Shown here one piece after another: positions 8,735 through 45,862 of a stretch of 64,000 nucleotides of DNA (positions are counted from its first letter, which is position 1; every line of letters begins with the position of its first letter). The translations under genes were made by a program, and so were the position numbers. Below the pieces are notes generated by a model that made no database searches, was not told where the DNA came from, and was given only the letters and a program-made list of their open reading frames with translations. Source of the DNA: Fibrobacterales bacterium. GTDB taxonomy: Bacteria; Fibrobacterota; Fibrobacteria; Fibrobacterales; JAOPTW01. The stretch covers positions 71,356 to 135,355 of the forward strand of contig JAOPTX010000003.1 of assembly GCA_051532055.1 (NCBI GenBank), in the 5' to 3' direction.

Positions 8735-8811
8735 TTTCGACGATATTGAGGTTTTCCTCAACTCAATATCTTAAGTAATAGAGGACACATAACTATTCAA
8801 TAGGAGATAAC

Positions 8812-11800
8812 GTGAAGAAAAAATTGTTAGCCTCACTTTTATTAAGTGCAATAGCAGTAACAGCAAGGCCTACGGTCCCAGTAGAGACCTTTAATTTATC
8901 GGTTTCATTATGGAGAAACCCAACTACTGCAGAAAAATTAATCTATGAAACTGTAGCGGATGAATTTGCAAAAGGTGTTTATCAAGCAACCAATGGTGGC
9001 GCAAAGATTGGGCGTCTTAATTTTTATGAAAATGGAAATACTGCAACAAATACTTCTGTAATGTGGAGTGAGCGAAGAGCACCGATGGCATATATCAATG
9101 GATACAAAGCCAATGGTTACATTCTCTTTGCTGATGAACTCGTTTTAGATGATAATGGAACTCAAGACCCAGCAGATGATACAACCATAAAGCTTTTTGA
9201 CGGGCTTGACGATGCTCTTGATGCTCAAAAAGCAGGTATGATACTTGCTCATGAATTTATGCACTATGTATATGGACTCTGTGATCAATATCGTGGTACA
9301 GAAGATTTGTCAGAAGCCAATACTCCTTGGTTACCTGACTTAAATGATCATGCAAGTCAATTTACCTTAATGTCTGATTTCATGACGGGAATAGCTACGT
9401 CAGAAGCATGGGCGAACCTTGATGTCTATGAAGATGTCGCTGAAGGGCATCGTTTTGAAGGAGAAAATGCACAAGGGCGTGTTTATAAAAAAAATATTGG
9501 AACACTTCAAGTACCTGAATATAAAGGTGCCTCTTCATGGGATGTATTGAGTCAAGATCCAACTCTTGAACCAGCTCTATGGGGTACTCGAGGTCCTATT
9601 GGTACAAATCAGTGGACAAGTCTCAGTGCTTTTGCTCCTTTGGTATCAGAGCTCATCGGTGCTGTTAAGTTTAGAGTTGATACAGATCTCCCGGTAGGTG
9701 AGGAGCCGTACAAAGCTTGGGTCGGTGATCAAATTGCCATTGAACTTGTTGTAGATATTTCGGGAAGTATGGATAACACTCCTGCGAGTCCAACTAAAAT
9801 GGAGCAGGCTACAGCGGCTGCACTTCATCTAACCTCCCAATATACGATTGGAACAGTTTGGTCGGGTTTAATATCATTTAGTGATATCTTGACAGAATTA
9901 CACCCTATGACATTTATTAATGATGCTTCCGCCCTTTCTACACTTCAAGGACATGTATCGGGCCTAGCTTCTGATAATGGAGATACTCATCTGTTCGATG
10001 CTGCCTATTTAGGATATGAGAAATTGAATAATACCATTTTTACACCAAGTGACCCTTTGAAAACAGCGTTTATTTTGACAGATGGAAAGGATAATAATAC
10101 TTCTGGTAGATCAGTACAAGAAGTTATAGATATTTATGAGCTTAATGGAATCTCTGCATTTACTTTTGGCTTTGGTACAGGAATAGCTAATATAGATGAA
10201 GTACCACTTAGAGCCATGGCCGAAGGAACAGGTGGGAAGTTTTTCCAAGGCTTAACAAGCCAATTGGAGCTTCAAAATGCATATGCTGACGCTATGAGCA
10301 TTGCTACAGGTAAAGAACTTATTGTGTCTTCAGAGCCTATACCTCCAACCGGTGCTTCGTATAATGTCGGTTCTCGTTGGTCTGAATACGAAGTTCGTAT
10401 GAAAAATACGTGTCCATCTTATACAACAGTTTTTGAAAAAGAAAATGTAGTACAAACTCCAATTCAAACCGGTGATGTATTTAAGTTTGACGTTTCAGGA
10501 GATAATTCAGAATTGAATTGGACAGTTGCTGTCACAGGATGCCCATCAATTACTTTTGATGTTTGGAAGAATCAATCAAATGGTGGTGTAATGTCACGTG
10601 CTGAAATTGATATTGATATAGAAGTTGTTTATCCTACCGCAGCCTTTATTACAGCTTCAGCATACGATAACGCTCCTCTAACAGGACTTGGTGTTCAAGC
10701 TAAAATCACTTCTCCAAGTAATGTTGAAACCGATATTGAGTTGAATGATAATGGTATTGAGGGTGATAAAATTGCTGGTGATGGTATCTATTCTATGGCG
10801 TGGGATGGATACACGGAAGATGGTGCTTATAAAGTAGAAGTAACATATGATAATGATGACGGTTTAGCGAGAACAACATACAATAAGCATGCTTTTGCAC
10901 ATGGCACAGACTTAATTAGTGATCCATATACTGAAGCCTATGATCGCGTGGTATTTGGGAGCATGTCTGTTGTTGGCGTAATTAGTGATGATCATGGTGA
11001 TGATATAATAAGTCCTTCAGATTTGTATGCAACCAATTCTGTCTATCCGTCAAGATTAGATACTGATGGAGATATTGATGTATTTAAAGTTATAAATTAC
11101 TCTGCAACAGATGAGTTGGTCATTAGAGTCACAAATATAGGTGATGAATTTGTTCCAGAAATAAGAGTTTTTGATGAAACTGGTATTGTTGTTATTGCTG
11201 AATACAACAAAGATAATGATTGTACAGATAATGGATATATAATTATTGATATCGATCCTGCCATAGTGAGCGTGAATGCTCACCTCTATGTTTCAGTTTC
11301 TCATTCAGTTTCTGACGGAGGATTAGCAAGTTATGATATCAGTGCTGGACTTCGGAACTCTACAGATATTGATGCAGAGTCTTGCCCTATACGTGGTGAC
11401 ATCGAAGGTGTTTTCTCTATTGTAAATGTTAATAGTGATAAATGTGTTGATGTTAAAGCTGCAGGTACCGATTATGGTGAAAATGTACAACAGTGGGATT
11501 GCAATGGAACAGGTGCCCAAAAATGGGAATTTATTAAAGTTGACGATACCTATGAAATTAAAAACGTTAATTCAGGGCTGTTACTTGATGTTGCATGGGG
11601 TGGATCAAATGAGAATGTGCAACAATGGGGAGATGTGAATTCATCAAGTCAGCGTTGGAGAGTTGAGAGATTTGCAGATGGTATTATTTCATTGAGACCC
11701 CAATCTGACTTTACTGAGTGTCTTGATGTTGAAGCACGAAGTACTACCTCAGGTGCAAATATTCAATCATACCCTTGTAATCTTACAGCTGCTCAACAGT

Positions 11801-25501: not shown

Positions 25502-31939
<6,438 letters not shown>

Positions 31940-32198: not shown

Positions 32199-33689
32199 CT
32201 AAATACTATACCAACCAGAAACTAATGGTTTTTGGTTGGGTGTAGTATCCATAGTAACAGTCTTTTTGCGACTGTAAGATTTTAGACTATCCAGACCAAG
32301 TTCTTTTCCATATCCACTATTCTTAAAGCCACCAAAGGGAACTTCACTCGAAAATGCCCCATAGGTGTTCACCCAGACCGTTCCTACATTTAAGGCTCTT
32401 ATTGCGCGCTGTATATATGCTTGATTATTGGTCCATATTGAAGCGGCGAGGCCATACTCAGAACTATTAGCCAGTGTTATAGCGTTATTAATTGAATTAT
32501 AAGGCGCGGTAATCAGAACGGGCCCAAATACCTCTTCATTCCATATATCCATATCCGATGTTACGTTACTTAATATGGTAGGTGGGAAGAAAGCACCTTT
32601 TGTAGGTATTTCACTCAGTTGGAGTGGGGTTATTCTCACAGCACCTTGGCCAATAGCTTGAGCAACCATTTTTGATACTTTCTCTCTATGGGTTGTACTG
32701 ATGAGTGGCCCCATATCTGTTGTGGGTCGCTCTCCTGAGGCTATTACTAATGCAGAGGCTTTCTGTGCAAGAAGCTCGGTAAATTTTTTGTAGATAGATT
32801 CATGAATGAGAAGACGTGATCCTGCGACACACATCTGCCCTTGGTTCATAAAGATGGTTGTTAAAATGGTGCGAGCAGTGCTTTCTAAGTTACAATCTTC
32901 ACATACAATAGTGGGGGACTTCCCCCCAAGTTCAAGAGTAACGGGTGCAAGATTAATTGCGGTGCTCTCTACAATTGCTCGTCCTGTTTTGGTAGACCCC
33001 GTAAAGGATACTTTAGCGATACCCATATGACCAGTCAGTGTTGGACCGATCTCTTCGCCAATGCCGGTTACTACATTAAGTGCTCCTTTGGGCAGGACTG
33101 TATCACTTAGTTTTTCACACAACGTTAAAAGTGACGCTGAGGTGAGCTCTGATGGTTTCATCACGATAGTATTGCCCGCAGCAAGGGCAGGTGCAATTTT
33201 CCACGCGGCCATTAAGAGTGGATAGTTCCAGGGTACAATCTGTGCAACAACGCCAAGGGGTTCATACTGAGTGTACGTGAAGGTACTGCCGTCTGTAGGG
33301 AATGTCTCACCCTTAAGTGAGAGTACCAGTGATGCATAGGTTCTAAAAACCTTTGCCGCTTCGGGAATATCAATAAGTGATGACTCTTTGATGGGTTTGC
33401 CATTTTCCTGAGTCTCTATTTGCGAGAGTAACCCTGAGTGCTCTTCAATAACTTCAGCAATTTCCCGTAGGATGTCGGCTCTGTCGTGATACGAAAGTGA
33501 CTGCCACTCACCTGAGTAATAGCACTCTTTTGCAGCTGTTATTGCTTTATTGATATCCTCAGGGGTTCCTTGTTGAATAGTCCACAGCAGCGCACCAGTG
33601 GCAGGGTTAATAGAATCAATAGTGTTCTCTGTAGTGCCTGTGCACCACTCGCCACCAATAAAGTGGCCATACTCTTTAGACACGATCAA
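32199..33689 (-). CDS. NAD(P)-dependent aldehyde dehydrogenase
   Basis: PWNYP, KPSELT, FTGST, LELGGKSP, GQMCVAG, EEVFGP, FGGFKNSGYG. Confidence 0.95.
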   Translation of the reverse strand: MIVSKEYGHFIGGEWCTGTTENTIDSINPATGALLWTIQQGTPEDINKAITAAKECYYSGEWQSLSYHDRADILREIAEVIEEHSGLLSQIETQENGKPIKESSLIDIPEAAKVFRTYASLVLSLKGETFPTDGSTFTYTQYEPLGVVAQIVPWNYPLLMAAWKIAPALAAGNTIVMKPSELTSASLLTLCEKLSDTVLPKGALNVVTGIGEEIGPTLTGHMGIAKVSFTGSTKTGRAIVESTAINLAPVTLELGGKSPTIVCEDCNLESTARTILTTIFMNQGQMCVAGSRLLIHESIYKKFTELLAQKASALVIASGERPTTDMGPLISTTHREKVSKMVAQAIGQGAVRITPLQLSEIPTKGAFFPPTILSNVTSDMDIWNEEVFGPVLITAPYNSINNAITLANSSEYGLAASIWTNNQAYIQRAIRALNVGTVWVNTYGAFSSEVPFGGFKNSGYGKELGLDSLKSYSRKKTVTMDTTPNQKPLVSGWYSI

Positions 33690-34680
33690 GCTCCTTTACG
33701 GGAGCAGCTTTCCAGAGTTCAAAGATTCGATAGAAAGGAGCGTACCATTTTGAGAGATCGCCTATATGTCCTTTAATGAGTTTTAGTTTTTTCTGACTGG
33801 TTGCGGCAAAAGGATCGAGCCTTCCATTAAAAACATGAATCCAAATTTCTCGTTTACCCATGTTAATAAAATCGGCATCATCATCATTGGTGATTTTTGT
33901 AAGGACACCTTTATTGAAATGCATGTTGTAGATAGTCCCATCATCAGTGAGTTTAATCGCGTAGCGTGTGGTCAAGTCAGAAGCTTCTCCTAGTGAGAGT
34001 GCTTCAGGGTCATTATTAATGAGGGTCTGTAGTTTTTCAATGTGGGCATCAGTAAAGACCTCATAGCTCTCACTAGGTTTTTCAGGGGCTTCTTCTACTC
34101 GTTTTGTATTTTGGTGCCCAAGGAGGACTGAATTAAGGGTAATCTTGGCTGCTGATTCTGCAGTGTCAGCCAAAGAATATGCCTCAATGAGGGTTTCACC
34201 GGCTGCTACGAGACCATGTTTTTCAAGAAAAACTATGGAGCTCGTTTGAAATGCGTTAAGTAGTGCAGGGATGTCGGTCACCGTTGGACTTTTCTGTGCG
34301 AGCACTGGGGGCTTTCCTAAGATGAGTGATGACTCATAGGTGCTTGACTCAAGTTCTCTGTTGCAGTTTAATAGGGATAATAGTGTAGTGGGATGGAGAT
34401 GGACGACTGCCTTGTAGCTTTCAGTGTTATAGAGCGCAAGATGCATATCGCTTTCAGTAGAGGTTCGTTTGCTGTTTGGTTCAATTAATGAGCCGGTATT
34501 ATCGATAAGAAGTAGGTCATCTTCAGTTATAAAACCAAGTGATGTTTGATGTGCCGTTATTAGAATTTCATTCTCATTAAGGCGACAGGATATATTTCCA
34601 CCCCAACCTGAAGTGAGTCCTTTGGTAAAGGCCATTTTTCCGATCTCTATTATCTGTTCTATACAACGTTGTTTGCTCAT
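33676..34680 (-). CDS. Class II aldolase/adducin-family protein fused to a C-terminal SCP2-like domain
   Basis: GGNISCR, STESDMH, VHLHP, EKHG; C-terminal DADF...W..VFNGRLDPFAA..QKKLKL.KG. Confidence 0.82.
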   Translation of the reverse strand: MSKQRCIEQIIEIGKMAFTKGLTSGWGGNISCRLNENEILITAHQTSLGFITEDDLLLIDNTGSLIEPNSKRTSTESDMHLALYNTESYKAVVHLHPTTLLSLLNCNRELESSTYESSLILGKPPVLAQKSPTVTDIPALLNAFQTSSIVFLEKHGLVAAGETLIEAYSLADTAESAAKITLNSVLLGHQNTKRVEEAPEKPSESYEVFTDAHIEKLQTLINNDPEALSLGEASDLTTRYAIKLTDDGTIYNMHFNKGVLTKITNDDDADFINMGKREIWIHVFNGRLDPFAATSQKKLKLIKGHIGDLSKWYAPFYRIFELWKAAPVKELDRV

Positions 34681-35189
34681 TGGCTATTCTCTGAAATAAG
34701 TTGGCTGGTAAGGTTTGGTAACATAATGTCTTTTTCTGGAATAAGGTCGTACTTAAAGGCTATGGTTGTAACGTTTGTAGGTATTATGTCACAATCAAAA
34801 AAGGTTTGGTCAGGAATATTTGACGTATCAATAGGAATGGTATAGGCTGGGATATTTAACTGTTTTGAAAAGAGCAACCCAATGGCACTACCAGGAAGGG
34901 TATTCCATTCAGTATCGGTTTTTTTATGGCCCTGAATATACAGGGCACTTATCTCTCTGTTCTGAAAGAGTGACCCAATCATATTGTCAGTTATGAGAGT
35001 GAGTGAAATGTTATGTTCACCGTAGTTTTGTATTGCATCAGAAACATCCTTTTCAAAAGGGCGTGTTTCAGTCACATAGAGGGTTGAACAGTCAGCATGA
35101 TTGGAAAAGATGGTATCAAGTGTCTCTTCTGTAGGGATGCCAATAAGAAGTATATGCATAGTTGACCTTAAATAAGGAGTCGTATCCAA
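34677..35189 (-). CDS. Short MtnA/eIF2B-like protein (C-terminal domain only, catalytic residues absent)
   Basis: YVTETRPF, LTLITDN, LNIPAY, YDLIP align by eye with the neighbouring MtnA (YATETRPY, VTLIPDN, CGIPFF, FDMTP). Confidence 0.7.
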   Translation of the reverse strand: MDTTPYLRSTMHILLIGIPTEETLDTIFSNHADCSTLYVTETRPFEKDVSDAIQNYGEHNISLTLITDNMIGSLFQNREISALYIQGHKKTDTEWNTLPGSAIGLLFSKQLNIPAYTIPIDTSNIPDQTFFDCDIIPTNVTTIAFKYDLIPEKDIMLPNLTSQLISENSQ

Positions 35190-35212: not shown

Positions 35213-36712
35213 TTATTGTGCTGGGGTTGCTTCTGACGATGCTTCAGCTGGAGCAACCGCTGCTTCACCACTTGCTGCTTGAGCATAATCATCCATCGAA
35301 CGCATATAGCTTTGGAAGATTTTGAGAGGAAATGAGTTAATGGTTTCACTTTCTAGAATGCGTTGTACACGCCCTCTAGCCGAGTAAAATTCACGGTTTG
35401 CCCATGCGGCAATTTGTCCGAGCTCTTCTCTTTTTAAGTGTTTGGTTCGTACCACTGGCTCATGGAAATTCCAACGATCGAAGTCCGTGATTTCACAAAA
35501 CTCCTTTACTTCTTCGTACATAGGGATTCCCGGTACAGGGAGAAGCATTTGTAGTGCCATGATATCTGGATCGATATCGTCGAGAACTGCAAAACGTTTT
35601 TTTAAACTCCGCGCACTGTCATCAGGGAAGCCAATGATCCATGTGATTACTGAAGTAATATTCATTTCACGAAGTGCTTCAGTGACCTCTTTTATTTCAG
35701 CGACTGTTGTACCTTTTTTCACTTTCTTTAACTCTGCATCATCGGTTACTTCTAATCCATATATCACTGCACCGAGGCCGCATTTTTGAAGCTCGGGGAG
35801 TAAATCAAGGTCACGTTTGAGTGAATGGGCATTACCGAGGAAATTAAAGTTTACGGGAAGCTTACGTTCTTGAAGTTCTGTAAGGAATGCTTCAGTACGT
35901 TTACGCGATGGGTTAAAGTTAAGATCAAAAATACTGATATTATCAACACCATAATTAACGTAAAGATGCTCCATTTCATCAACAACTCGTTTTGCTGATT
36001 TGTAGCGATGTTTCATCCAGTCATTATTTCCCCGTGGATCCATAGTAACCCAGTCGATACAAAAGCTGCAGCCAAATGGGCAGCCACGCGAAGTAAAAAT
36101 CTCTTGGTAAGTATCGATCTGATCATACCCGATATATTTATCCATAGGGAAGAGTTCATAGGCTGGCATTGGTAACGAGTCGAGGTCTTTAATGAGTGGT
36201 CTATACTCATTGACGATGAGCTCATCTAAATCAGATCGGTGACAAAGCCCTTTAATGGTAGAGAGGTCGCCATCATCTGTTGCAAGTGTTGCTACAAGTT
36301 CGGTAACGGTGAGGTCTGGTTCGCCAGCAATGACATAGTCATACTGTGGCGTTTCATTGGCGATATCTTTATAGTTAGCTGCGATGTAGAAACCACCAGC
36401 GCAGATGCTCACTTCAGGGAACATTTCTTTAATCATTACTGCTGCACGTTCATAGTGAGGAATAATTGAGAGCGTCTGTGTCATTTGATACGCATCACCA
36501 AGATATATGAGGTCGGGTTGACGTGTATCAATTTCTTGAAGCATTTGCTCGTGTTGAAAGTCCTCCGCTCTACAGTCGAGTGCTTCAACGGTTACATCTT
36601 TTACATCGCGCTGTATGCATGCTGCTATTTGTGCATGACTTACGTTGATTGCAATGTGCTTTCCCCATGTGACCCATGATCCCATGGGAGGTTGTAAAAA
36701 TAGTACTTTCAT
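35213..36712 (-). CDS. Cobalamin (B12)-binding radical SAM enzyme
   Basis: Start MKVLFLQPP at 36712 with GAGGA RBS; B12-domain motifs GG, DYVIAGE, DLDSLPMP; SRGCPFGCSFC; YGLE, IIGFP, PVPGIP. Confidence 0.9.
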   Translation of the reverse strand: MKVLFLQPPMGSWVTWGKHIAINVSHAQIAACIQRDVKDVTVEALDCRAEDFQHEQMLQEIDTRQPDLIYLGDAYQMTQTLSIIPHYERAAVMIKEMFPEVSICAGGFYIAANYKDIANETPQYDYVIAGEPDLTVTELVATLATDDGDLSTIKGLCHRSDLDELIVNEYRPLIKDLDSLPMPAYELFPMDKYIGYDQIDTYQEIFTSRGCPFGCSFCIDWVTMDPRGNNDWMKHRYKSAKRVVDEMEHLYVNYGVDNISIFDLNFNPSRKRTEAFLTELQERKLPVNFNFLGNAHSLKRDLDLLPELQKCGLGAVIYGLEVTDDAELKKVKKGTTVAEIKEVTEALREMNITSVITWIIGFPDDSARSLKKRFAVLDDIDPDIMALQMLLPVPGIPMYEEVKEFCEITDFDRWNFHEPVVRTKHLKREELGQIAAWANREFYSARGRVQRILESETINSFPLKIFQSYMRSMDDYAQAASGEAAVAPAEASSEATPAQ

Positions 36713-36725
36713 TGTGTCCTCTTGG

Positions 36726-37721
36726 TTATTTACTCCAGGCTTCTGGTAATTCAGAAGGCGATAGAGCAGCATTAAATGTTATTAGTTTTGTTATAAGGGT
36801 GTGTGGAGTCATATCAAATGCAGGGTAATAGGCATCAGTATGCTCTGGATATATTTTTCTATCTTTAAAGGTTGTTACCTCACGACTATCACGGTGTTCA
36901 ATAGGAACTTCTTCACCTGTTTCCGTAGAACCAGGATCTTGCACTAATGAAAAGAAGGGAATACCGCACTCTTTTGCGATTGTTGCAATTTGAAAGGTAC
37001 CCGTTTTATTGACCACATCACCATTAAGCGCGACTCTATCGGCTCCGGTAATGACTTTAGTAATGGTTCCTGATATAATAATCGAAGCGGTTCTATTATC
37101 TGGTATGAGCGTTACTGAAAATCCTTCTTTCTGTAATTCCCATGCGGTCAACCGTCCTTGAAAGTAAGGGCGGGTCTCAGTTGCATAAAATGAGAGTGAC
37201 TTACCTTGTGCTTTGCAAAGCTGTGCAATGAGCAGTAATTCACCACTTGTATTACAGTGAGTTAATACAATATCACCATCATCAAATAGTTCAGTCGCAA
37301 GCTTTGCTCGGTGGAGGCGCATCTGTTTGATGCGCTCTAAAAATCCTAAGACTTTAGTCTCTGCAAACTCTTTTGTGTCTTTCTCATTTTGAGTAATACC
37401 TTCATAAACCCACTGCTTAACCATAGCCGTGTATGTTTTAAAGCTAAATGTTGGCCTGCTCTTATTGAGTGCTTCAACAGCATCGGCTATTGTTACTTCA
37501 AGAACATCTTCTTCAGTATTTCTTATGGTTATGATAAGAGCATAAAATACGGTGAGAAGTTGTCCAAATGCGCGGGTCTTCATGTCTCGTATAACGGTCA
37601 CCGCTTCTGAATAATCAGAAACGGTGATGTAGGTTATCGCTTCAGGAAGCGCAGTCTCATCAAGTACTTCAAACGTCTTATGCTGTAGTCGCGCCGACCA
37701 ACCCAGAAGTGGAAATTCCAT
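36726..37721 (-). CDS. mtnA: S-methyl-5-thioribose-1-phosphate isomerase-family (MtnA/DrdI-like) aldose-ketose isomerase
   Basis: LDETALP, SRPT, LTHCN, ETRPYFQGRLTAWEL, GADRVALNGDVVNKTGT, PIEHR, PAFDMTP; ATG at 37721. Confidence 0.85.
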   Translation of the reverse strand: MEFPLLGWSARLQHKTFEVLDETALPEAITYITVSDYSEAVTVIRDMKTRAFGQLLTVFYALIITIRNTEEDVLEVTIADAVEALNKSRPTFSFKTYTAMVKQWVYEGITQNEKDTKEFAETKVLGFLERIKQMRLHRAKLATELFDDGDIVLTHCNTSGELLLIAQLCKAQGKSLSFYATETRPYFQGRLTAWELQKEGFSVTLIPDNRTASIIISGTITKVITGADRVALNGDVVNKTGTFQIATIAKECGIPFFSLVQDPGSTETGEEVPIEHRDSREVTTFKDRKIYPEHTDAYYPAFDMTPHTLITKLITFNAALSPSELPEAWSK

Positions 37722-38469
37722 GGGCACCTTTAGACTCTAAAATGTTAATGGCTTCGAATGCGATATCAATAGTTTTAGATTCAGCTTCAAAAAATTTGAG
37801 ACTGCCAAAACCTAGTTCACCTGTGATAAGGTTATCACTTACTGCGAGTACTGCACCTGCTTTAAGACCTTTGACTTGTGCAACGGTAAGAAGTGCTGAC
37901 GTTACCATATCGACACCGATACATTTAAGGTCGCACATCTCTGCGATAAGCTCTTTGGTTTCTCTCAGAAGTGCATCGGTACTCCAAGTAAGACCCACAT
38001 GGTAGGTGACCCCAAGGTTTTCACAGGCCTCTACGAGTGCTGAAGTAGTCATGAGGTCAACTACTGTGGAGAAGTTGGCAGGAACATAGTAGGGTGAAGT
38101 ACCTTCACCACGAATCGCACCATTGGCAATGATGATATCACCAACAGCAATATCTTCACGCATTGCGCCACATGACCCTGTTCTGATTACTGTTTCTGTG
38201 CCACCGGCTGCAAGAATTTCTGTGGTGATTGCTGCGGGAGGAGCATACATGCCACTATTTGCAGTGCTCACCAACAGCTCACCAATCTCACCAGTGTGCA
38301 TCTCAACACCTGCAAAAGAGAAGTCTCTCACTGGGTCTGTTAATTTTGCTTTTACTGCATCAAGTCTATCAATGGGTCCTGGTACTACAGCGTACTTACC
38401 CAGCGATCCTGGTTGAAGTTGAACCATTTTTAAAAGGTCTTGTGCGTCCATGTGAACATTCTTACTCAT
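37678..38469 (-). CDS. Nucleoside phosphorylase (PNP/UDP family 1, uridine phosphorylase-like)
   Basis: VPGPIDR, IRTGSCG, AIRGEGTSPYY, STDALLRE, VDMVTSA, VSDN. Confidence 0.85.
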   Translation of the reverse strand: MSKNVHMDAQDLLKMVQLQPGSLGKYAVVPGPIDRLDAVKAKLTDPVRDFSFAGVEMHTGEIGELLVSTANSGMYAPPAAITTEILAAGGTETVIRTGSCGAMREDIAVGDIIIANGAIRGEGTSPYYVPANFSTVVDLMTTSALVEACENLGVTYHVGLTWSTDALLRETKELIAEMCDLKCIGVDMVTSALLTVAQVKGLKAGAVLAVSDNLITGELGFGSLKFFEAESKTIDIAFEAINILESKGAHGISTSGLVGATTA

Positions 38470-38699: not shown

Positions 38700-38963
38700 T
38701 TACTGCGCTGACTTTTTTTCTGACTCTATATAATCATTCATGATCGTCAGCATTCCACCAAGAGTTGTAATTGATGAAACTGAAGAGAGCGGTACATTGA
38801 TTTTAAACGTTGTTTGTAGTCGTACCCCAAGAGTCATGATGCCGAGTGAGTCAATACCGATATCTTCATAGATATTGGTTTCTTCACTAATTTCATCAGA
38901 CTCCATACCAAGGTGATCACATATTACGGGTGAAAAATCTTTCCAAGAAATAGTACTCATCAT
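38700..38963 (-). CDS. Acyl/aryl carrier protein
   Basis: 87 aa acidic protein with phosphopantetheine motif DIGIDSL. Confidence 0.9.
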   Translation of the reverse strand: MMSTISWKDFSPVICDHLGMESDEISEETNIYEDIGIDSLGIMTLGVRLQTTFKINVPLSSVSSITTLGGMLTIMNDYIESEKKSAQ

Positions 38964-40546
38964 TACTCCTGTGTTACGCTCATCATGCGGGTTAACTCTT
39001 CTTTTGATTGATCGATCAGTTGTTGAAAATTCACTTTTCCTACACCTGGATTTTTGGGTATTTCATCAATAAAGATGATATTGTCGGGCACCATATACGG
39101 AGCGAGGTTTTCTCTACACACTCTCATGATAGCTCCTGTTTTTAATTCAGCCTGTGGGTCTTTAACGACATACGCCCATACCATTTCACCATAGAGTTCA
39201 TGGGGCACACCAACGACCGCTGTACTGAGTACTTCAGGTAAGGTTTCAATCATCTCTTTGATCACTACTGGGGAGACACTTTTGCCTCCACGTTTAATGA
39301 GGTATTTATTTCTACCGAGTAGGGCGATAGTGTTGTCGCCAATCATTTTCGCATGATCACCAGTCTTGAACCATCCATCACAAAAAGCGGTTTTGTTCTC
39401 ATCAATGTTGCCGAGATATTGTTTGATAACCCCTTTTCCTTTAATCCAGAGTTCACCTTCAATGCCATCTTCTACACTTGTACCATCAGCATTAAAAATG
39501 CCGATTTCATTTCCAGTACCATTTACCAAAGTAAGTTCATTAGTGGTATTAATAAAGTCAGCTTCACTCTTCGCTTTCCAAACCATGATGACTGTTGCAG
39601 TTTCAATGAGACCATAGCCAATGCCAACATGGTTGAGGTTTGTAAATTTCTCTTTAATTCTATTGAGGAGTTTATTGGGGAAGAAGTCCATGCCTGTATA
39701 AAGACCTTGTACTGTTGAAAGGTCAAATTGACCAAGCATAGGGAGTCCAAGGATTGCCTCATAATAGGCTGGTGGCGCTGCAATTGAGTCGGCCTTCCAT
39801 TTTTGAACCTGTTGAAGATAGGTGACCGGAGACATATCTGACGTTGAGATTTGTTTAACTCCTGCCATCATCATACCACTCAGTACCAATATCCCCGAAG
39901 TAGAGAGGGGGAAGGCGAGCATGCATGAGTAGTGATTGCCTTGTGGCATAGCCATTTCAAAAGACGATTTAAGGACCGATGCGCCACTGCCTTGTGACAT
40001 CATAACCATTTTAGGTTTGCCTGTCGTTCCAGAACTGGTTGCCATCATAAAAGGATGGTTTTCATCGGTACCTTTAAAAAGGTGCTCTTTTATAACAAGA
40101 GCACTGACTGCTTCGTCAGTATCACTTTTAAATGAACTTACTGGAACTACGGTAAATGGTGCTTGCAACTGTTGTGCTGTTTCGGTGAACGTTTCACACT
40201 CTTTATCTGAGGTTACGACATGACCAACGCGACAACCGAGATAGATGCCTACGCGTGCTTGTGCAGGAATCATGTTAAAGAGGGGGACCGCTATAGCTCC
40301 AAGTCGCGATATGGAGAGTAATAGGTAAAAGGTCTCAGCACAGTTGGGGAGGGTATACCCCACACCAGCACCTGGTTTAATACCAAGAGCAATGAGTTTT
40401 TTTGTGTAGCAATCAACATTTGTTTTAAGAGTATCAAGAGTGATAATCTCATCGTTTATGATCAGAAGTTCTGTACTCCCTTCTTTGGTGTACAATATGT
40501 TTTCTATTATGTCATTAAAGGTATTACATGAGAATATGTCACTCAT
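38963..40546 (-). CDS. Class I adenylate-forming enzyme (acyl-AMP/CoA/ACP ligase) 2
   Basis: TSSGTTGKPK, GYGLIE, WFKTGD, GRNKYLIKRGG, IPKNPGVGKV. Confidence 0.9.
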   Translation of the reverse strand: MSDIFSCNTFNDIIENILYTKEGSTELLIINDEIITLDTLKTNVDCYTKKLIALGIKPGAGVGYTLPNCAETFYLLLSISRLGAIAVPLFNMIPAQARVGIYLGCRVGHVVTSDKECETFTETAQQLQAPFTVVPVSSFKSDTDEAVSALVIKEHLFKGTDENHPFMMATSSGTTGKPKMVMMSQGSGASVLKSSFEMAMPQGNHYSCMLAFPLSTSGILVLSGMMMAGVKQISTSDMSPVTYLQQVQKWKADSIAAPPAYYEAILGLPMLGQFDLSTVQGLYTGMDFFPNKLLNRIKEKFTNLNHVGIGYGLIETATVIMVWKAKSEADFINTTNELTLVNGTGNEIGIFNADGTSVEDGIEGELWIKGKGVIKQYLGNIDENKTAFCDGWFKTGDHAKMIGDNTIALLGRNKYLIKRGGKSVSPVVIKEMIETLPEVLSTAVVGVPHELYGEMVWAYVVKDPQAELKTGAIMRVCRENLAPYMVPDNIIFIDEIPKNPGVGKVNFQQLIDQSKEELTRMMSVTQE

Positions 40547-42105
40547 ACGGTCTCCTTGTGTTCTCGTATTGATTTATATTGAATTTTTCCAATTTCTTTG
40601 GGGAGTTCAAGGGTAATAAGGAACTCATCCGGGATTTTGTAGCTTGAAAGATTACCACTGCAGTATCGGCGGAGTTTACCGCCATTTAACACGCACCCCG
40701 ATCTTGGTTGTACGTGGGCTTTTATCATTTCACCCAACAAGTCATGGGGTTCAACGGTTATTGCTACGGCAACAATATCATTGTGGGTTAATAGAAATGC
40801 CTCAATATCTTCGGGGAATATGAGGTTTGCACCTCTTTTGAGAACTCGTTTTTTACGTCCCAAGAATGCAACGCGGCCCGTTTCATCGTACTGACCTAAA
40901 TCACCTGTTCGAAACCAACGCATTGAATCATTTTCGTAAAGAGCTCTTTCAGTTTCTGCACTATTATTATGGTAGTTGTGTAAGATACCATCTGTATGAA
41001 TATGGATCATACCAATTTCGCCATGGGGGACGATTTTGTCGTTGTCGTCACAGAGTTTCACTTGAGTAAAAGGGGGTGTGCGATAGACGTTACAATCGAC
41101 GGCACTATCAACGTCGGAATCCCACACAAGCATAGTAGCGGTCTCTGTAGAACCAATAATGTTAACCACACGAATACCGAAGTCATCGACAAAACGGTGT
41201 GCGATTTTATTGGGGAGCACTTCTCCCGCAAAATAACAGAGGCGGAGACTCGAGATATCATAGCTCTCAAAATCGGGAACCGAAAGAAGTATTTTGGCAA
41301 GCGTACTGCTTAGTTGGAGAACCGTTACTCGGTTCTCTTGAATAGTTTTAAGCATGGTTACTGGGTCAAAGGAGCCCAAGTAGATTACTGATCCACCCAT
41401 CAAACTATTCTGAAGGCCCATACCAAAGCCACCGAGGTGAAAGAGAGGCATCCCCATGAGCATCACATCAATTGGGTTTAAATCGAGGTAGCGGGCCATA
41501 TCTGTCTGAGATGTATAAAAACCCTCTTTTGAAACCGTGATAATTTTGGGGTTACTTGTTGAACCAGAAGTACTTGCGAGCATTAAGGTATCACTGTGTA
41601 CCTGATTTGTGGTTATTGAAAGAGTTGTTTCGTTACTCAATATATCACTATACCAAAGAACCTTGTCGTTTTCTGGTAGTGTAATGTCGGCGTCTAAGAA
41701 CACCAATGTTTTAATATCAGTAAAGGTATCTGAGAGGGCTGTGAGGTTCGCAAGGTGATTGATGTTTCGAAACTTCACGCACGCTATAGCCAATTTGATA
41801 GAGAGTGTTTTTAAAAGCCCTTCGAGTTCCCACTTTCCAATTTGAGGATTGAGCGGCACGGGAAGTGCTTCTAATGTAATAAGAGCCCAGTAGGTTGTAT
41901 ACCACTCAATGCAGTTGGGGAGTATCAGCATGACTTGGTCGCCCGCTCCAACTCCTTGACGAGACAATGCCTCTGCAACACTCTGTATTTCGGAGTTCAG
42001 CTCTGCACGAGTGTGAGATCGACCGTCAACAGTAATAGCATCTCCTTGAGGATTTTCTGTACTGAGGGAATCTATCCATACATGAAAAGGGTTTGGGATA
42101 TTCAC
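40543..42105 (-). CDS. Class I adenylate-forming enzyme (acyl-AMP/CoA/ACP ligase) 1
   Basis: STSGSTSNPK, PLFHLGG, GSTE, WFRTGDLG, GRKKRVLKRGA, LPKEIGKI. Confidence 0.9.
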   Translation of the reverse strand: MNIPNPFHVWIDSLSTENPQGDAITVDGRSHTRAELNSEIQSVAEALSRQGVGAGDQVMLILPNCIEWYTTYWALITLEALPVPLNPQIGKWELEGLLKTLSIKLAIACVKFRNINHLANLTALSDTFTDIKTLVFLDADITLPENDKVLWYSDILSNETTLSITTNQVHSDTLMLASTSGSTSNPKIITVSKEGFYTSQTDMARYLDLNPIDVMLMGMPLFHLGGFGMGLQNSLMGGSVIYLGSFDPVTMLKTIQENRVTVLQLSSTLAKILLSVPDFESYDISSLRLCYFAGEVLPNKIAHRFVDDFGIRVVNIIGSTETATMLVWDSDVDSAVDCNVYRTPPFTQVKLCDDNDKIVPHGEIGMIHIHTDGILHNYHNNSAETERALYENDSMRWFRTGDLGQYDETGRVAFLGRKKRVLKRGANLIFPEDIEAFLLTHNDIVAVAITVEPHDLLGEMIKAHVQPRSGCVLNGGKLRRYCSGNLSSYKIPDEFLITLELPKEIGKIQYKSIREHKETV

Positions 42106-43265
42106 TCTGCTATTACTCCTTCAGCTACAGTCGATGTGATTGCTTGAGTTGCGATCCAATCTGCAAAGACATGTTTAATCCAGTGGAGTTGTTCGCCTAC
42201 AGGCATTGTGTGAGTTACCTGAATACCTTGATAGTAGACGGGTTCATCTTCAAGTATAAGAAGTTCTTTTGGACCGGTTGCTTTTTCATGGAGTTCGAGT
42301 GCATTGTCGATAGTCATCCAGTTGTCGTGTCTGCCATGAATGAGAAAATAAGGGCAGGCAACCTTTTCTTCACTGCCGAGTCCCATTTCAGCAACGAAAG
42401 TCTTTGCATCTACGCCACCTGTCTGAAAGTTGTAAGCAGGTCCTTGACGCATCCATGCAGGCGTTACACTTTCGTCGACTTGATCAATATAGAGGGGGAA
42501 GAGTGTTGCACACCATGCGAAGCGCTTATCGAGGCTTGCTGCTTTATACGCATAACCACCTCCCATACAGAGCCCTGATACGCCAATTCTTTCTGAATCG
42601 ATCATATCTAATGCACACGCATAGTCCATGGTGCTTTTAAATGTCTCTAGGATAGATACCATACGGCACTTAATGTCGCGATCAAAGAGTGCTTCTCCAC
42701 AACCAGGCATGTCAGGTACGAGCACTGCAATACCTCTTTTTAAGAGGGGCATTGCGAGAATATGCATCTCTTCTTTACAGCTACCGAGGCCTTCAAAGAG
42801 GATTGTGCAAGGAAAGGGACCTTCACCTTCAGGAAAATGGAGATATGCAGGGACAGAAGTCTCGCCAATAGATATATCAACCTTCTTTGATTCTGTCGTT
42901 AGGAAGGTGAGTGCTTTGTCATAATACCGTGCATACTGAAGATAGACATTCTTCTTATCTTCGATTTTAACAAAGTTAATAAGGAACACCGCATAGTAAC
43001 ACTGGGCCGTTTGAAGGTACATGTCATAGGCGGTAATGGTATCGCCACGAGTTTCAGCATTCTGTGCTATATTCAGATATCGCTCTGCTTTTGTCTCCCA
43101 TAGAGCGAGCCATTTTTTCTGTAATACATTGGAGTTGATGATGTTTGTGTTCTCTACCTCTTTGAGGATCGCTTCTATGTCGAATGGATTGGTACCATAT
43201 ATTAACATACGCGTAATAACAGGGGCTAAAAAGGTGCGGATACTCCATTCTACAGGTGCGGTCAT
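42102..43265 (-). CDS. Alpha/beta hydrolase (FrsA/DHPON-hydrolase-like) with Cys at the nucleophile elbow
   Basis: PAYLHFP, GLGSCKEE, DMPGCGE, RIGVSGLCMGGGYA, IHGRHD, THT; start at TAATG overlap 43265. Confidence 0.85.
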   Translation of the reverse strand: MTAPVEWSIRTFLAPVITRMLIYGTNPFDIEAILKEVENTNIINSNVLQKKWLALWETKAERYLNIAQNAETRGDTITAYDMYLQTAQCYYAVFLINFVKIEDKKNVYLQYARYYDKALTFLTTESKKVDISIGETSVPAYLHFPEGEGPFPCTILFEGLGSCKEEMHILAMPLLKRGIAVLVPDMPGCGEALFDRDIKCRMVSILETFKSTMDYACALDMIDSERIGVSGLCMGGGYAYKAASLDKRFAWCATLFPLYIDQVDESVTPAWMRQGPAYNFQTGGVDAKTFVAEMGLGSEEKVACPYFLIHGRHDNWMTIDNALELHEKATGPKELLILEDEPVYYQGIQVTHTMPVGEQLHWIKHVFADWIATQAITSTVAEGVIAE

Positions 43266-44362
43266 TAACGTCTCCTTTGGGGAATTGTACAATGCATTAC
43301 TGCAAGTAAGGGGGTAGACTTGTAGGCAATTGAGGTGTAGCTATCGGCTTCATGTGTAACACAGTTACATTCAAGTGCATCTGTTTCGGATTGTACCTGA
43401 TTTACTGAACACTCTTGTATAGTAAATCCACTCTCTATTAAGCGGTCGAGCCATTGTTGGGCAGTGTTGTGCCCTTCGCGGATATACTCAGTTTTATTTC
43501 CAATAATGTCGATGATTTCAAAAACAAAGATTTCCTTAATTGACAAGCGTACGGACTCAGTAAGATGTTTGAGGGTGTCGATATAGTCAAAAATTCCTTT
43601 GAAATGGGTGTAACAGTTCTTTATACGTTCAGGGTAAGGTATGGTGATATGATCGACATCGGGTTCGGCAATATAGAGCGATGCAGGGTTTAGAACGTTC
43701 ATGTGGGTAGTCATTTGCTCACGAATAATGGTGTCATTACTACAGTGATGGAGTGAGAGGAGCGCAGTGATAATAAGCGGTCCCGTAATACTTTCTTGAA
43801 TTTCATCCCACTCTTTGGCGTTAAGTTTATCAATTGAACTATTAAAGCTGAGGAGTGAAAGAGTGATGGTACACTGAGTGCAGAGATCTTGTAGAGATCG
43901 CTGCCCGAGACCCAAAAGCTGTTTCGATGGTTCACAAGCAATTATGGTGACTGAATGAAGCTTAGGATTATGAATATACAGTGCTGATATGATTTCTCGG
44001 AGCAATCCTCCAGTCTTAAAGCCTGTATCAAAAAGGGTTATTTCTTCTTCTTCACCATAGAGTGTGAGTATCGAATCTATGAGAGATTGTTTTACGAGTG
44101 AGAGGATAGGGAAGTGTTCTAGGAAGAGTGCAACGCACTGTGCTGTTGAGTAGGGGGATAAGTGAAGGTTTTGTTGGTCTTCTTTAGTAATTGGTTTGTT
44201 ATAGTGTAGTTTAATTGCGTAAGAAAAACATCGAGCGAGAATAGCATCATTAGAATTGTAGGATTGGAGGTCCTCACTTTGTAGAGAGAGGCTCAATGCA
44301 TCAGTATCGATAGGGGGCTCTGTCAACGTAAGGGTTTCTATGAGTTGCTTTATTGGGCTCAT
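43265..44362 (-). CDS. Bacterial GRAS-domain protein (Rossmann methyltransferase-like fold)
   Basis: ITLFDTGFKTG (VHIID-equivalent), VTIIACEP, LSLHH, LNPASLYIAEPDVDH, RIKNCYTHF..IFDYID, EIIDIIG, REGH....WLDRLIESGF. Confidence 0.75.
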   Translation of the reverse strand: MSPIKQLIETLTLTEPPIDTDALSLSLQSEDLQSYNSNDAILARCFSYAIKLHYNKPITKEDQQNLHLSPYSTAQCVALFLEHFPILSLVKQSLIDSILTLYGEEEEITLFDTGFKTGGLLREIISALYIHNPKLHSVTIIACEPSKQLLGLGQRSLQDLCTQCTITLSLLSFNSSIDKLNAKEWDEIQESITGPLIITALLSLHHCSNDTIIREQMTTHMNVLNPASLYIAEPDVDHITIPYPERIKNCYTHFKGIFDYIDTLKHLTESVRLSIKEIFVFEIIDIIGNKTEYIREGHNTAQQWLDRLIESGFTIQECSVNQVQSETDALECNCVTHEADSYTSIAYKSTPLLAVMHCTIPQRRR

Positions 44363-45600
44363 GGGGTGACTACCCCTGCAGTACATCGCTCTACGATCAT
44401 GGGCAGTTGTGTTAAAGCGTTTGAAACTGTCTCATCAGAGACACAGGTCGAGAGACGAATATATCGTTCAAATCGACTTCCGCCAAATACTGAACCCGGC
44501 ATATACACAAGTGCTGGGTTGCTACTAAAGGCGGCCTCTCGAAAGAGTGCCTCACTCTCAATAGCTTCAGGAAGCTTTGCCCATATATAGAAGGTCCCTT
44601 TGGGTGGAACTACGGTGAAACCGAGCTCTTGCAAGGTTACCGTAAGGGCATCAGTGTATTCGTTATAAAAATAGCAGCTGGTGTCATCCAGTAACCCGAT
44701 TTGAGAGATTACCTTTTGTTGTATTACCGAGGGGTGTACAACTCTACTTCTTATTCTGAGCCGTAGGGCTTCAAGGAGGGTAGAGCACTCAAGGTCACCT
44801 TCATAATGAGGGTTAACGGCAATATATCCAATCCGTTCTCCCGGGATTCTGAGTGATTTTGAGAATGAATCGACTCGTATTGTTTCACTCCAGAGGAGCA
44901 TCATTGAAGGAACCGTTACCGCTGATGGGATAACTCTATCATAGACAGCATCCTCAATGATACTTATTGAGGTACCAGTAGTGAGCTCCATCTCTTTAAG
45001 GAGTTGTGCTAAGTTTTCTAATGAGCTCTCGGAATAAATTGCACCTGTAGGATTGTTGGGAGAATTCAAGAGAATCGCTACACAATCTGCGGTCAATGCA
45101 TTTCGAATGCTGGTACTATTTAAGGAACAGTCATCATTAGTGCTGACTCGTATGACCGTTGCCCCTGCTTGTTCGATGATAGTATCATATTCGACAAAGT
45201 GAGGGGTCAGTACAATCACTTCTGGGGTCGTTTCTCTTTTGGTAGCTCGTTTATTGTCTACAATGGTACTGATGACTGCATCCAATGCGCCTGTAGCGCC
45301 GACAGTCATGATTACTTGTTCTTGAGTAAAGGGTATGGAAAACCGTTTTTGTAAATCCAGAGAGATTCTATCGCTCGCATCACCACTTCCAAAACCTGTT
45401 TGATACAGAAAGCTATTGTGATCAGTCTCGATCATTTGCTTTGTTGTCGCAAGCAATACCTCTCGATAGTATTGTGGTGGTTTTTCTGCGGGGTTTCCGA
45501 GAGATAGGTCAATTACCTTTCCTGGTGCGTTTTTCACCTGAGAAAAAAGGTCGTAAATTGTCTGGTTATTTTTAACCTGATCAAGTGCGCTTTTTATCAT
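44359..45600 (-). CDS. PLP-dependent aminotransferase class I/II
   Basis: DLSLGNP, GATGAL, LNSPNNPTG, EDAVYD, SFSKSLRIPGERIGY, PGSVFG, YIRLS; ATG at 45600 with AAGGA RBS. Confidence 0.9.
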   Translation of the reverse strand: MIKSALDQVKNNQTIYDLFSQVKNAPGKVIDLSLGNPAEKPPQYYREVLLATTKQMIETDHNSFLYQTGFGSGDASDRISLDLQKRFSIPFTQEQVIMTVGATGALDAVISTIVDNKRATKRETTPEVIVLTPHFVEYDTIIEQAGATVIRVSTNDDCSLNSTSIRNALTADCVAILLNSPNNPTGAIYSESSLENLAQLLKEMELTTGTSISIIEDAVYDRVIPSAVTVPSMMLLWSETIRVDSFSKSLRIPGERIGYIAVNPHYEGDLECSTLLEALRLRIRSRVVHPSVIQQKVISQIGLLDDTSCYFYNEYTDALTVTLQELGFTVVPPKGTFYIWAKLPEAIESEALFREAAFSSNPALVYMPGSVFGGSRFERYIRLSTCVSDETVSNALTQLPMIVERCTAGVVTP

Positions 45601-45862
45601 GTCCCAATTCCTTAAAGCTAACAAAAAGATAGTACAGGTTTGTAATTTGGGACTTATTTGTCATGATATTGGTGTAATGTATGTGTCTTATTTACAGTGC
45701 TACCTCAAATATTTCTTTTGATTAGTGATAACTATTTTGTGCTGATTAGTAAATGCAAGGGTTTCATAAGTTGACATGGCTTCATTTGTGATTTCAGTTC
45801 GTGCTGCACTGCGATTCGAGGGTTGATAAATTAATTGAAATGCGCTTGATATCCTTAATTAT

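Follow-up and report, generated by a model that had tools for sequence, protein, structure and literature searches.

Introduction

What does a GRAS protein do in a bacterium when its gene lies within a metabolic operon? This question is raised by a gene found on the minus strand, at positions 43265..44362, of a 64,000-nucleotide (nt) stretch of DNA from a Fibrobacterales bacterium (assembly GCA_051532055.1, contig JAOPTX010000003.1, forward-strand positions 71,356 to 135,355), referred to here as the window. Its product is a divergent bacterial GRAS protein, with a Rossmann fold that makes it kin to the S-adenosylmethionine (SAM)-dependent methyltransferases and with the cap and the insert, both helical, that plant GRAS domains carry. 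It carries a lysine at the most invariant position of the cofactor loop of the family, and its gene is placed between those of an aminotransferase and a hydrolase. We tentatively propose that it acts as a methylase on an intermediate that is a 2-oxo acid or an amino acid.

The GRAS proteins of plants (DELLA, SCR, SHR, NSP) are central regulators of growth and symbiosis. Their bacterial counterparts were first described as relatives of Rossmann-fold methyltransferases by Zhang, Iyer and Aravind (2012), according to the portions of PMC4279901 and bioRxiv 10.1101/398883 in which that work is cited. A search of the literature gave plant papers or papers that simply cite that work, and in these no tested biochemical function for any bacterial GRAS protein was found, nor any link with aminotransferases. 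Bacterial GRAS proteins are already known, the new elements being the lysine variant and the operon in which it resides.

Results

A divergent member of the GRAS family

The unbroken open reading frame (ORF) spans positions 43265-44386 of the minus strand and encodes 373 amino acids (aa). Three close homologues, with 77, 70 and 69% identity, all begin at the second methionine (MSPI...), so that the gene most likely corresponds to 43265..44362 and its product to 365 aa, the ATG at 44386 adding eight residues. These homologues and the query form a four-member clade, and one of them bears the source name 'GRAS family protein [Fibrobacterales bacterium]'. The sequence-only reading of this locus had set the start at the second methionine, in agreement with the homologues, and had assigned the product to the GRAS family on the basis of the order of its motifs. 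All of these are present at the translated coordinates, as ITLFD, DTGFKTG, LNP...EPDVDH, REGHN and then W...R...GF. These motif matches exceed chance by far.

The assignment was borne out by profile and structure comparisons. Pfam GRAS (PF03514) covers residues 73-333 with a score of 60.6 bits, where the gathering threshold is 27 bits, and an E-value of 1.7e-16, and this gene is the only one in the source genome that matches the model; no NCBIfam model was assigned to the protein. Even the lone sequence retrieved the plant protein SCL3 from the PDB (E 1e-3). Searched exhaustively with HMMER, 1.84 billion cluster representatives gave 277 matches at E<=1e-3, 191 of them at E<=1e-10, the best one beyond the protein's own cluster showing 32% identity. 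When a profile was built from an alignment of the GRAS protein and 77 relatives (four clade members and 74 others), the 15 distinct PDB sequences recovered at E<=0.01 were exclusively plant GRAS proteins, ranging from SCL3 (1.3e-37) through DELLA, SCL7, SCR, SHR and NSP2 to NSP1 (2.7e-15). No methyltransferase, including the CysG and BelI chains, was found at that threshold.

An AlphaFold2 model computed from the same alignment had a mean predicted local distance difference test score (pLDDT) of 91.9 and a predicted template modelling score (pTM) of 0.91. In Foldseek searches of the PDB, the ten best matches to this model were all plant GRAS domains (E 4e-18 to 1e-14), while ordinary methyltransferases first appeared at rank 13 (E 4e-7). 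The predicted fold consists of an N-terminal helical cap, a seven-stranded Rossmann-like methyltransferase core and a helical insert after strand beta5, so that what the model resembles is the fold of plant GRAS proteins and not that of an ordinary class I methyltransferase. Residues 1-362 of the 365 superpose on the GRAS domain alone, and the Pfam scan revealed no DNA-binding or other extra domain. Altogether, membership of the GRAS family is almost certain. In comparison with plant members such as SCL3 (6kpb/6kpd), DELLA RGA (9lum), SCL7 (5hyz) and SCR/SHR (5b3g), the protein has no N-terminal regulatory region and, unlike them, it is encoded in a bacterial metabolic operon and keeps the acid with which strand beta2 ends, as well as two of the three glycines in the cofactor loop. 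With other bacterial GRAS proteins it shares the family of profile and fold, a length of about 360 aa and the motifs LHH, EPxxDH, R..N...HF, K..F..EI.D and E.H....W..RL...GF. It differs from them in its low identity outside its own cluster, its Lys116 and Leu120, and its REGHN sequence.

An altered cofactor loop next to a conserved pocket

The segment equivalent to the SAM loop (motif I) reads DTGFKTG and comprises residues 112-118 (44009..44029, minus strand), with the codon for Lys116 at 44015-44017. Asp112 is kept, as are two of the three loop glycines, Gly114 and Gly118, with lysine taking the place of the one in between. The extent of this change was evaluated by realigning all 153 listed sequences, four from the clade and 149 others. 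Lysine occupies position 116 in the four clade members, whereas glycine is found in every other representative having a residue there (145/145, with four gapped), as it is in the 74 other bacterial GRAS proteins of the smaller alignment. At position 120 the protein has leucine, so that the loop reads DTGFKTGGL, versus glutamine in 140 of 146 others. Among the aligned sequences, a substitution at the most invariant cofactor-loop position of the family is unique to this clade. The whole loop region is invariant among the four members despite an overall identity of just 69-77%. Neither the canonical DxGxGxGxQ loop nor the RxERHE motif is present in the protein; since plant GRAS proteins do not have the DxGxGxGxQ loop either, its alteration does not exclude membership of the family.

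Other elements of a cofactor site are in place. Glu144 (43931..43933, minus strand), at the end of strand beta2 (residues 137-143 in the model), is kept in all four clade members, and the same position is occupied by glutamate in 123 and aspartate in 19 of 147 other representatives; we take it to be the equivalent of the acid with which class I methyltransferases hold the ribose. Asp178, an acid after beta3 that is kept in the clade and is glutamate in the family, presumably corresponds to the one that holds adenine, and Lys116 would fall, in our assignment, where these enzymes hold the methionine part of SAM.

The pocket is well preserved. His205-His206, the LHH motif located right after strand beta4 (43745..43750, minus strand), is histidine at its two positions in 147/149 and 146/149 of the others. 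The motif of the PFYRE region, EPDVDH (residues 233-238, after strand beta5; 43649..43666, minus strand), includes Glu233, present in 149/149 others, and His238, present in 125/149. The list of kept pocket residues is completed by Arg246, Asn249, His253, Lys276, Glu282, Asp285, Glu296, His298 and Trp304, and the motifs LHH, EPxxDH, R..N...H, K....E..D and E.H....W are all present and invariant in the clade. In general, alignment columns conserved in at least 70% of the 74 other sequences are mostly kept by the four clade members, a few near-invariant ones being different. The clearest loss is in REGHN (residues 295-299; 43466..43480, minus strand), which replaces the RxERHE of the family. Here Arg294, Arg297 and Glu299 are missing, while Glu296, His298 and Trp304 remain. 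Position 294 is isoleucine, versus arginine in 136/149; position 297 is glycine, where the others have arginine (111), lysine (21) or glutamine (10); and position 299 is asparagine, versus glutamate in 131/149. Gly297 and Asn299 recur in a single other sequence, P0006. In the canonical family, Arg294 and Arg297 might hold the carboxylate of the substrate. Compared with its orthologue in a second species of the genus, the gene has a ratio of nonsynonymous to synonymous divergence (dN/dS) of 0.10, so that it is functional and under purifying selection.

Coupling to an aminotransferase and a hydrolase

The gene is the second in a block of 12 co-directional minus-strand genes that runs from 45624 down to 32199. 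The first gene (44359..45624, minus strand) encodes an AspC-like class I/II aminotransferase dependent on pyridoxal 5'-phosphate (PLP), identified by Pfam Aminotran_1_2 (E 1e-30). It scores 270 bits with NCBIfam PRK06836, under the cut-off of 376, and its best PDB match is 3ele (2e-36). Lys248 and Arg382, which we assume to be the PLP lysine and the carboxylate-binding arginine, are invariant in an alignment of 50 sequences. Its TGA stop codon overlaps the ATG of the GRAS gene as ATGA. On the other side, the GRAS stop codon overlaps, as TAATG, the ATG (43265-43263) of the third gene (42102..43265, minus strand), for an alpha/beta hydrolase of the FrsA/2,6-dihydroxy-pseudo-oxynicotine (DHPON)-hydrolase type (Pfam FrsA-like). 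Although the longest hydrolase ORF begins at a TTG at 43292, that ATG, preceded by AAGGAG 7 nt upstream, is likely to be the real start, giving 387 aa. The GRAS gene is therefore translationally coupled to both neighbors through these overlapping stop and start codons. The tight association with small-molecule enzymes claimed in the sequence-only reading is thus confirmed by both overlaps, by the 12 co-directional genes and by the conservation of their order in a second species (G238).

The nearest solved structure to the hydrolase is 2jbw, DHPON hydrolase (1e-23), followed by AntI and Ayg1, relatives that cleave carbon-carbon (C-C) bonds. The enzyme is nearer to these than to simple esterases, a hint that the pathway may pass through a beta-diketone or a beta-keto acid.

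Aminotransferases at other bacterial GRAS loci

The genomic context of other bacterial GRAS genes was surveyed by scanning species-representative genomes with an alignment of eight canonical sequences. The resulting 80 loci, limited by design to those encoding FFGREIED and skewed to Bacteroidota, come from Saprospiraceae and other Bacteroidota, cyanobacteria, Paenibacillaceae, a myxobacterium and a metagenome-assembled genome of Methanoperedens. A HisC-like class I/II aminotransferase is encoded on the same strand and no more than 700 nt downstream of the GRAS gene in 55 of them; when loci with less than 1200 nt of downstream sequence are set aside, the count is 53 of 73. Fusions of the two proteins were also found, in both orders. 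GRAS-aminotransferase fusions are represented by a single ORF of 755 aa at locus L072 (about 8700-11000, plus strand) and by P0079, of 735 aa, and the reverse order by P0105, a partial fusion of 651 aa from an organism with DNA rich in guanine and cytosine. The Fibrobacterales aminotransferase is encoded upstream of the GRAS gene, which matches the domain order of P0105, and shows only 24-31% identity over 87-174 residues with the HisC-like partners. Given this different subfamily and the upstream placement, the Fibrobacterales pair is at least the third case in which a GRAS protein and a PLP-dependent aminotransferase have come together independently. The rest of the operon sets this locus further apart from the others, since it is found at none of the 80, at any one of which the other 11 proteins had two weak matches at most.

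Other partners were noted along the way. Among 15 long GRAS proteins scanned, five carry a CBS pair and four a TerB domain; these C-terminal CBS pairs or TerB-like domains are in P0084, P0088, P0109, P0137 and P0145, and in P0023, P0030, P0043 and P0052. CBS pairs usually bind adenosyl ligands. In many Bacteroidota, a propeller/Y_Y_Y histidine kinase (31/80 loci) and a LytTR response regulator (32/80) are encoded near the GRAS-aminotransferase pair, directly upstream in L019, L029, L030, L031, L047, L056, L059, L065, L068 and others, and downstream or on the opposite strand elsewhere. In a Paenibacillus locus (L006:10965-12065, plus strand), a gene for D-2-hydroxyacid dehydrogenase, which also acts on 2-oxo acids, begins 5 nt past the GRAS gene; this being the only case in 80 loci, the enzyme was discarded as a general partner. 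The idea of a CobD/PduX pair to explain the aminotransferase and GHMP kinase genes near some Bacteroidales GRAS genes was likewise abandoned, the kinase being IspE and the aminotransferase HisC-like.

The rest of the operon and its distribution

Downstream of the hydrolase gene, all on the minus strand, lie two genes for adenylate-forming enzymes, the first of the acyl-coenzyme A (CoA)/acyl carrier protein (ACP) ligase type (40543..42105; Pfam AMP-binding; PDB oxalyl-CoA synthetase 6qjz, 4.5e-41) and the second (38963..40546; Pfam AMP-binding) closest to oxalate-CoA ligase 5ie0 (7e-35); the nearest relatives of both are oxalate-CoA ligases and FadD13. They are followed by an ACP (38700..38963; Pfam PP-binding) with the phosphopantetheine site GIDSLG in its translation, a nucleoside phosphorylase (PNP_UDP_1; 37678..38469) similar to uridine, purine and methylthioadenosine phosphorylases, an MtnA-like sugar-1-phosphate isomerase (36726..37727; Pfam IF-2B, E 2e-53) that falls under the equivalog cut-offs of NCBIfam, and a BchE-like B12-binding radical SAM enzyme (35213..36772) recognized by Pfam and NCBIfam. 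Next comes an ORF of 170 aa (34677..35189) that weakly matches (E about 1e-4) a short stretch of the MtnA/IF-2B fold; its dN/dS of 0.26 makes it the least constrained in the block, and it could be either a small subunit or a remnant. The block ends with a fusion of a class II aldolase and an SCP2-like domain (33676..34680), the aldolase of which resembles fuculose-phosphate-type aldolases, and an aldehyde dehydrogenase (32199..33689; Pfam Aldedh, E 1e-163). An Rfam scan of the window at gathering thresholds yielded no riboswitch or other RNA, and promoter-like sites were rarer than in shuffled sequences, so that promoter and terminator scans were uninformative.

All 12 genes recur, with their order unchanged, in G238, the other species of the genus. 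Protein identities according to tblastn go from 72% (the 170-aa ORF) to 97%, with 77% for the GRAS protein and 79% for the aminotransferase; the highest value, that of the radical SAM enzyme, refers to the best segment and becomes 94.8% in a full-length alignment. PF03514 was detected in two of 296 genomes of the phylum (G000 and G238) and in none of 14 control genomes, and the full-length aldolase-SCP2 protein in the same two of the 296. Near relatives of the aminotransferase and of the GRAS protein were also found on contigs of matching lengths (140338 and 32270 bases). Using the radical SAM enzyme as a metagenome probe, 21 loci were obtained, all with 29% identity or less and without other operon genes, except for a weak aminotransferase match in one of them (L087). 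The operon is confined to one uncultured genus of Fibrobacterales.

Synonymous divergence (dS) between the two species was higher in the aminotransferase (1.16) and GRAS (1.43) genes, at window positions 43265-45624 and L003:13651-15983, than in the other ten (0.48-1.04). This could reflect a history of the pair that is in part its own, or simply saturation of dS. As for the flanks, the downstream one is partly syntenic in G238, with F5/8-type and nuclease genes. A gene for a protein of 2145 aa with InlB B-repeat-like domains (25502-31939, minus strand) lies directly downstream of the operon; in the corresponding stretch of G238, this gene (by tblastn) and the upstream histidine kinase were the only ones not found.

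Discussion

The association with aminotransferases offers a clue to the function of this protein. Taken together, the overlap of its gene with those of an aminotransferase and a hydrolase, the 55 of 80 loci elsewhere and the fusions in both orders suggest that the ligands held in the GRAS pocket are 2-oxo or amino acids, and we infer that in canonical members SAM methylates the acid bound there. For the Fibrobacterales protein, the explanation that we favor, with considerable reserve, is that it methylates a 2-oxo or amino acid intermediate, without choosing between methylation at carbon or at oxygen. According to this proposal, the aminotransferase would interconvert an amino acid and its 2-oxo acid, and the GRAS protein would bind the acid in the conserved pocket lined by His, Glu, Asp and Arg and add a methyl group from SAM. 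The adenylating enzymes would then activate the product and load it onto the ACP.

Two versions of the methylation step can be considered. Pairs formed by an aminotransferase and a 2-oxo acid C-methyltransferase (MppJ, SgvM, MrsA) make beta-methyl amino acids, and in the first version the GRAS protein would similarly introduce the methyl group at the carbon beside the keto group. In the second, it would form a transient methyl ester on the carboxyl group, to be removed later by the adjacent hydrolase, in a manner comparable to CysG/CysF/CysE. In the cystargolide pathway, as outlined in PMC11427300, CysG protects a carboxylate by turning it into a methyl ester, which serves an adenylate-forming enzyme before the hydrolase CysE takes the methyl group off. 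A His-His-Asp metal site in CysG and BelI is described in PMC11408123, and His205-His206 of the GRAS protein, right after beta4, would be positioned like His122-His123 of CysG, by residue spacing and not by residue alignment. The GRAS protein is not a sequence relative of CysG/BelI, however, and shares with them a general likeness of fold only. The gene set also differs from that of the beta-lactones cystargolide and belactosin in its C-C-type hydrolase and in the additional ACP, aminotransferase and radical SAM/sugar-phosphate genes.

Several observations weigh against methylation by this protein. The canonical SAM loop is not intact, with Lys116 and Leu120 in it, and the two arginines at positions 294 and 297 have become isoleucine and glycine. 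The kinship of the hydrolase is with enzymes that cleave C-C bonds rather than with methyl esterases. With respect to the association itself, almost all of the 55 loci that have an aminotransferase come from Bacteroidota (one is labeled Bifidobacterium) and their sampled members belong to one clade of the tree, so that they represent roughly one evolutionary event; in addition, the aminotransferase here is of another subfamily, so the association may have a different meaning. Finally, judging by the eroded SAM-site residues of its closest outgroups, the lineage seems to tolerate the loss of SAM binding.

This last point is related to the first of the alternatives, namely that the GRAS protein works independently of SAM, as a binder, a scaffold or a catalyst, perhaps metal-dependent, the ligand of which, held between the aminotransferase and the hydrolase, would be a labile 2-oxo acid or acyl species. 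A role as ligand binder was already suggested in the sequence-only reading, and it would be the bacterial counterpart of what has been proposed for GRAS proteins in plants. In a quick maximum-likelihood tree built with 62 sequences, 55 of them canonical, the clade joins P0006 with a Shimodaira-Hasegawa approximate likelihood ratio test (SH-aLRT) value of 97, and then P0028 and P0034 (95). The resulting seven-sequence group stands apart from the 55 canonical sequences (SH-aLRT 95-99). P0006 does not have Asp112, Gly114 and Glu144, and Gly114, Gly118 and Glu144 are absent from P0028 and P0034, while the three sequences keep the pocket (H205, H206, E233, H238, R246, N249, H253, E282, D285, E296, H298 and W304). 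The replacement of Gly116 and Gln120 in the clade would fit a role without SAM, as would the dN values of the GRAS protein (0.143) and the aminotransferase (0.131), the highest in the block with the exception of the 170-aa ORF. On the other hand, Asp112, Gly114, Gly118, Glu144 and Asp178 are kept and invariant in the clade, which is hard to explain if the cofactor site is idle, and catechol O-methyltransferase (GAYCG) is active with a bulky residue in place of the central glycine. The outgroup evidence also has its weaknesses: P0006 sits on a single contig of 1502 bases, has no gene context and may be a decayed gene, and its end branch was flagged as long (1.78), with internal branches of 0.56-1.49 in the group, so that the grouping may in part be the result of long-branch attraction. 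With these data, a SAM-independent function is the main rival of methylation, though less likely than it.

A broader form of this idea refers to the evolution of the family. The change from a methylase to a ligand-binding GRAS protein free of cofactor is thought to have occurred in plants. It could also have taken place within bacteria, in the lineage of the Fibrobacterales clade and P0006, P0028 and P0034, where the SAM site would be eroding, the pocket would be kept and the protein would work with the aminotransferase and the hydrolase as a binder that does not methylate, or as a metal-dependent catalyst, for a 2-oxo acid intermediate. We regard this scenario as speculative and somewhat less probable than the SAM-independent function as such.

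A methylating GRAS protein, our preferred explanation, was also weighed against one that binds SAM for other chemistry, for example the transfer of a 3-amino-3-carboxypropyl group. This would release methylthioadenosine, which four other products of the operon (phosphorylase, isomerase, aldolase and aldehyde dehydrogenase) would then process. The phosphorylase, the MtnA-like isomerase and the fuculose-phosphate-type aldolase do resemble the dihydroxyacetone phosphate (DHAP)-shunt set for SAM by-products, and the altered Lys116 would be at the part of the loop that holds the methionine portion of SAM in class I methyltransferases. Nevertheless, the radical SAM enzyme already present in the operon accounts for the processing of 5'-deoxyadenosine or of an adenosylated intermediate, the structural match to CmoA is tied with those to many ordinary methyltransferases, and we know of no member of the GRAS family with chemistry of this type, all of which makes this alternative improbable. 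As for a transcriptional regulator similar to plant GRAS proteins, likeness of fold and motifs to SCL3, DELLA, SCR and SHR is what favors it, but it is hardly credible for a protein that consists of the GRAS domain alone, with no DNA-binding or extra domain in Pfam, and whose gene is translationally coupled to enzymes within an operon, when the plant proteins exert their action by way of partner transcription factors that are specific to plants.

The locus offers a way to ask what GRAS proteins did before plants acquired them. Its pairing with an aminotransferase gives defined 2-oxo and amino acid substrates with which the ancestral function of the family could be probed, and the clade with Lys116 represents a natural test of whether a GRAS pocket can work in the absence of SAM, a matter of relevance to the way in which the plant proteins ceased to be enzymes.

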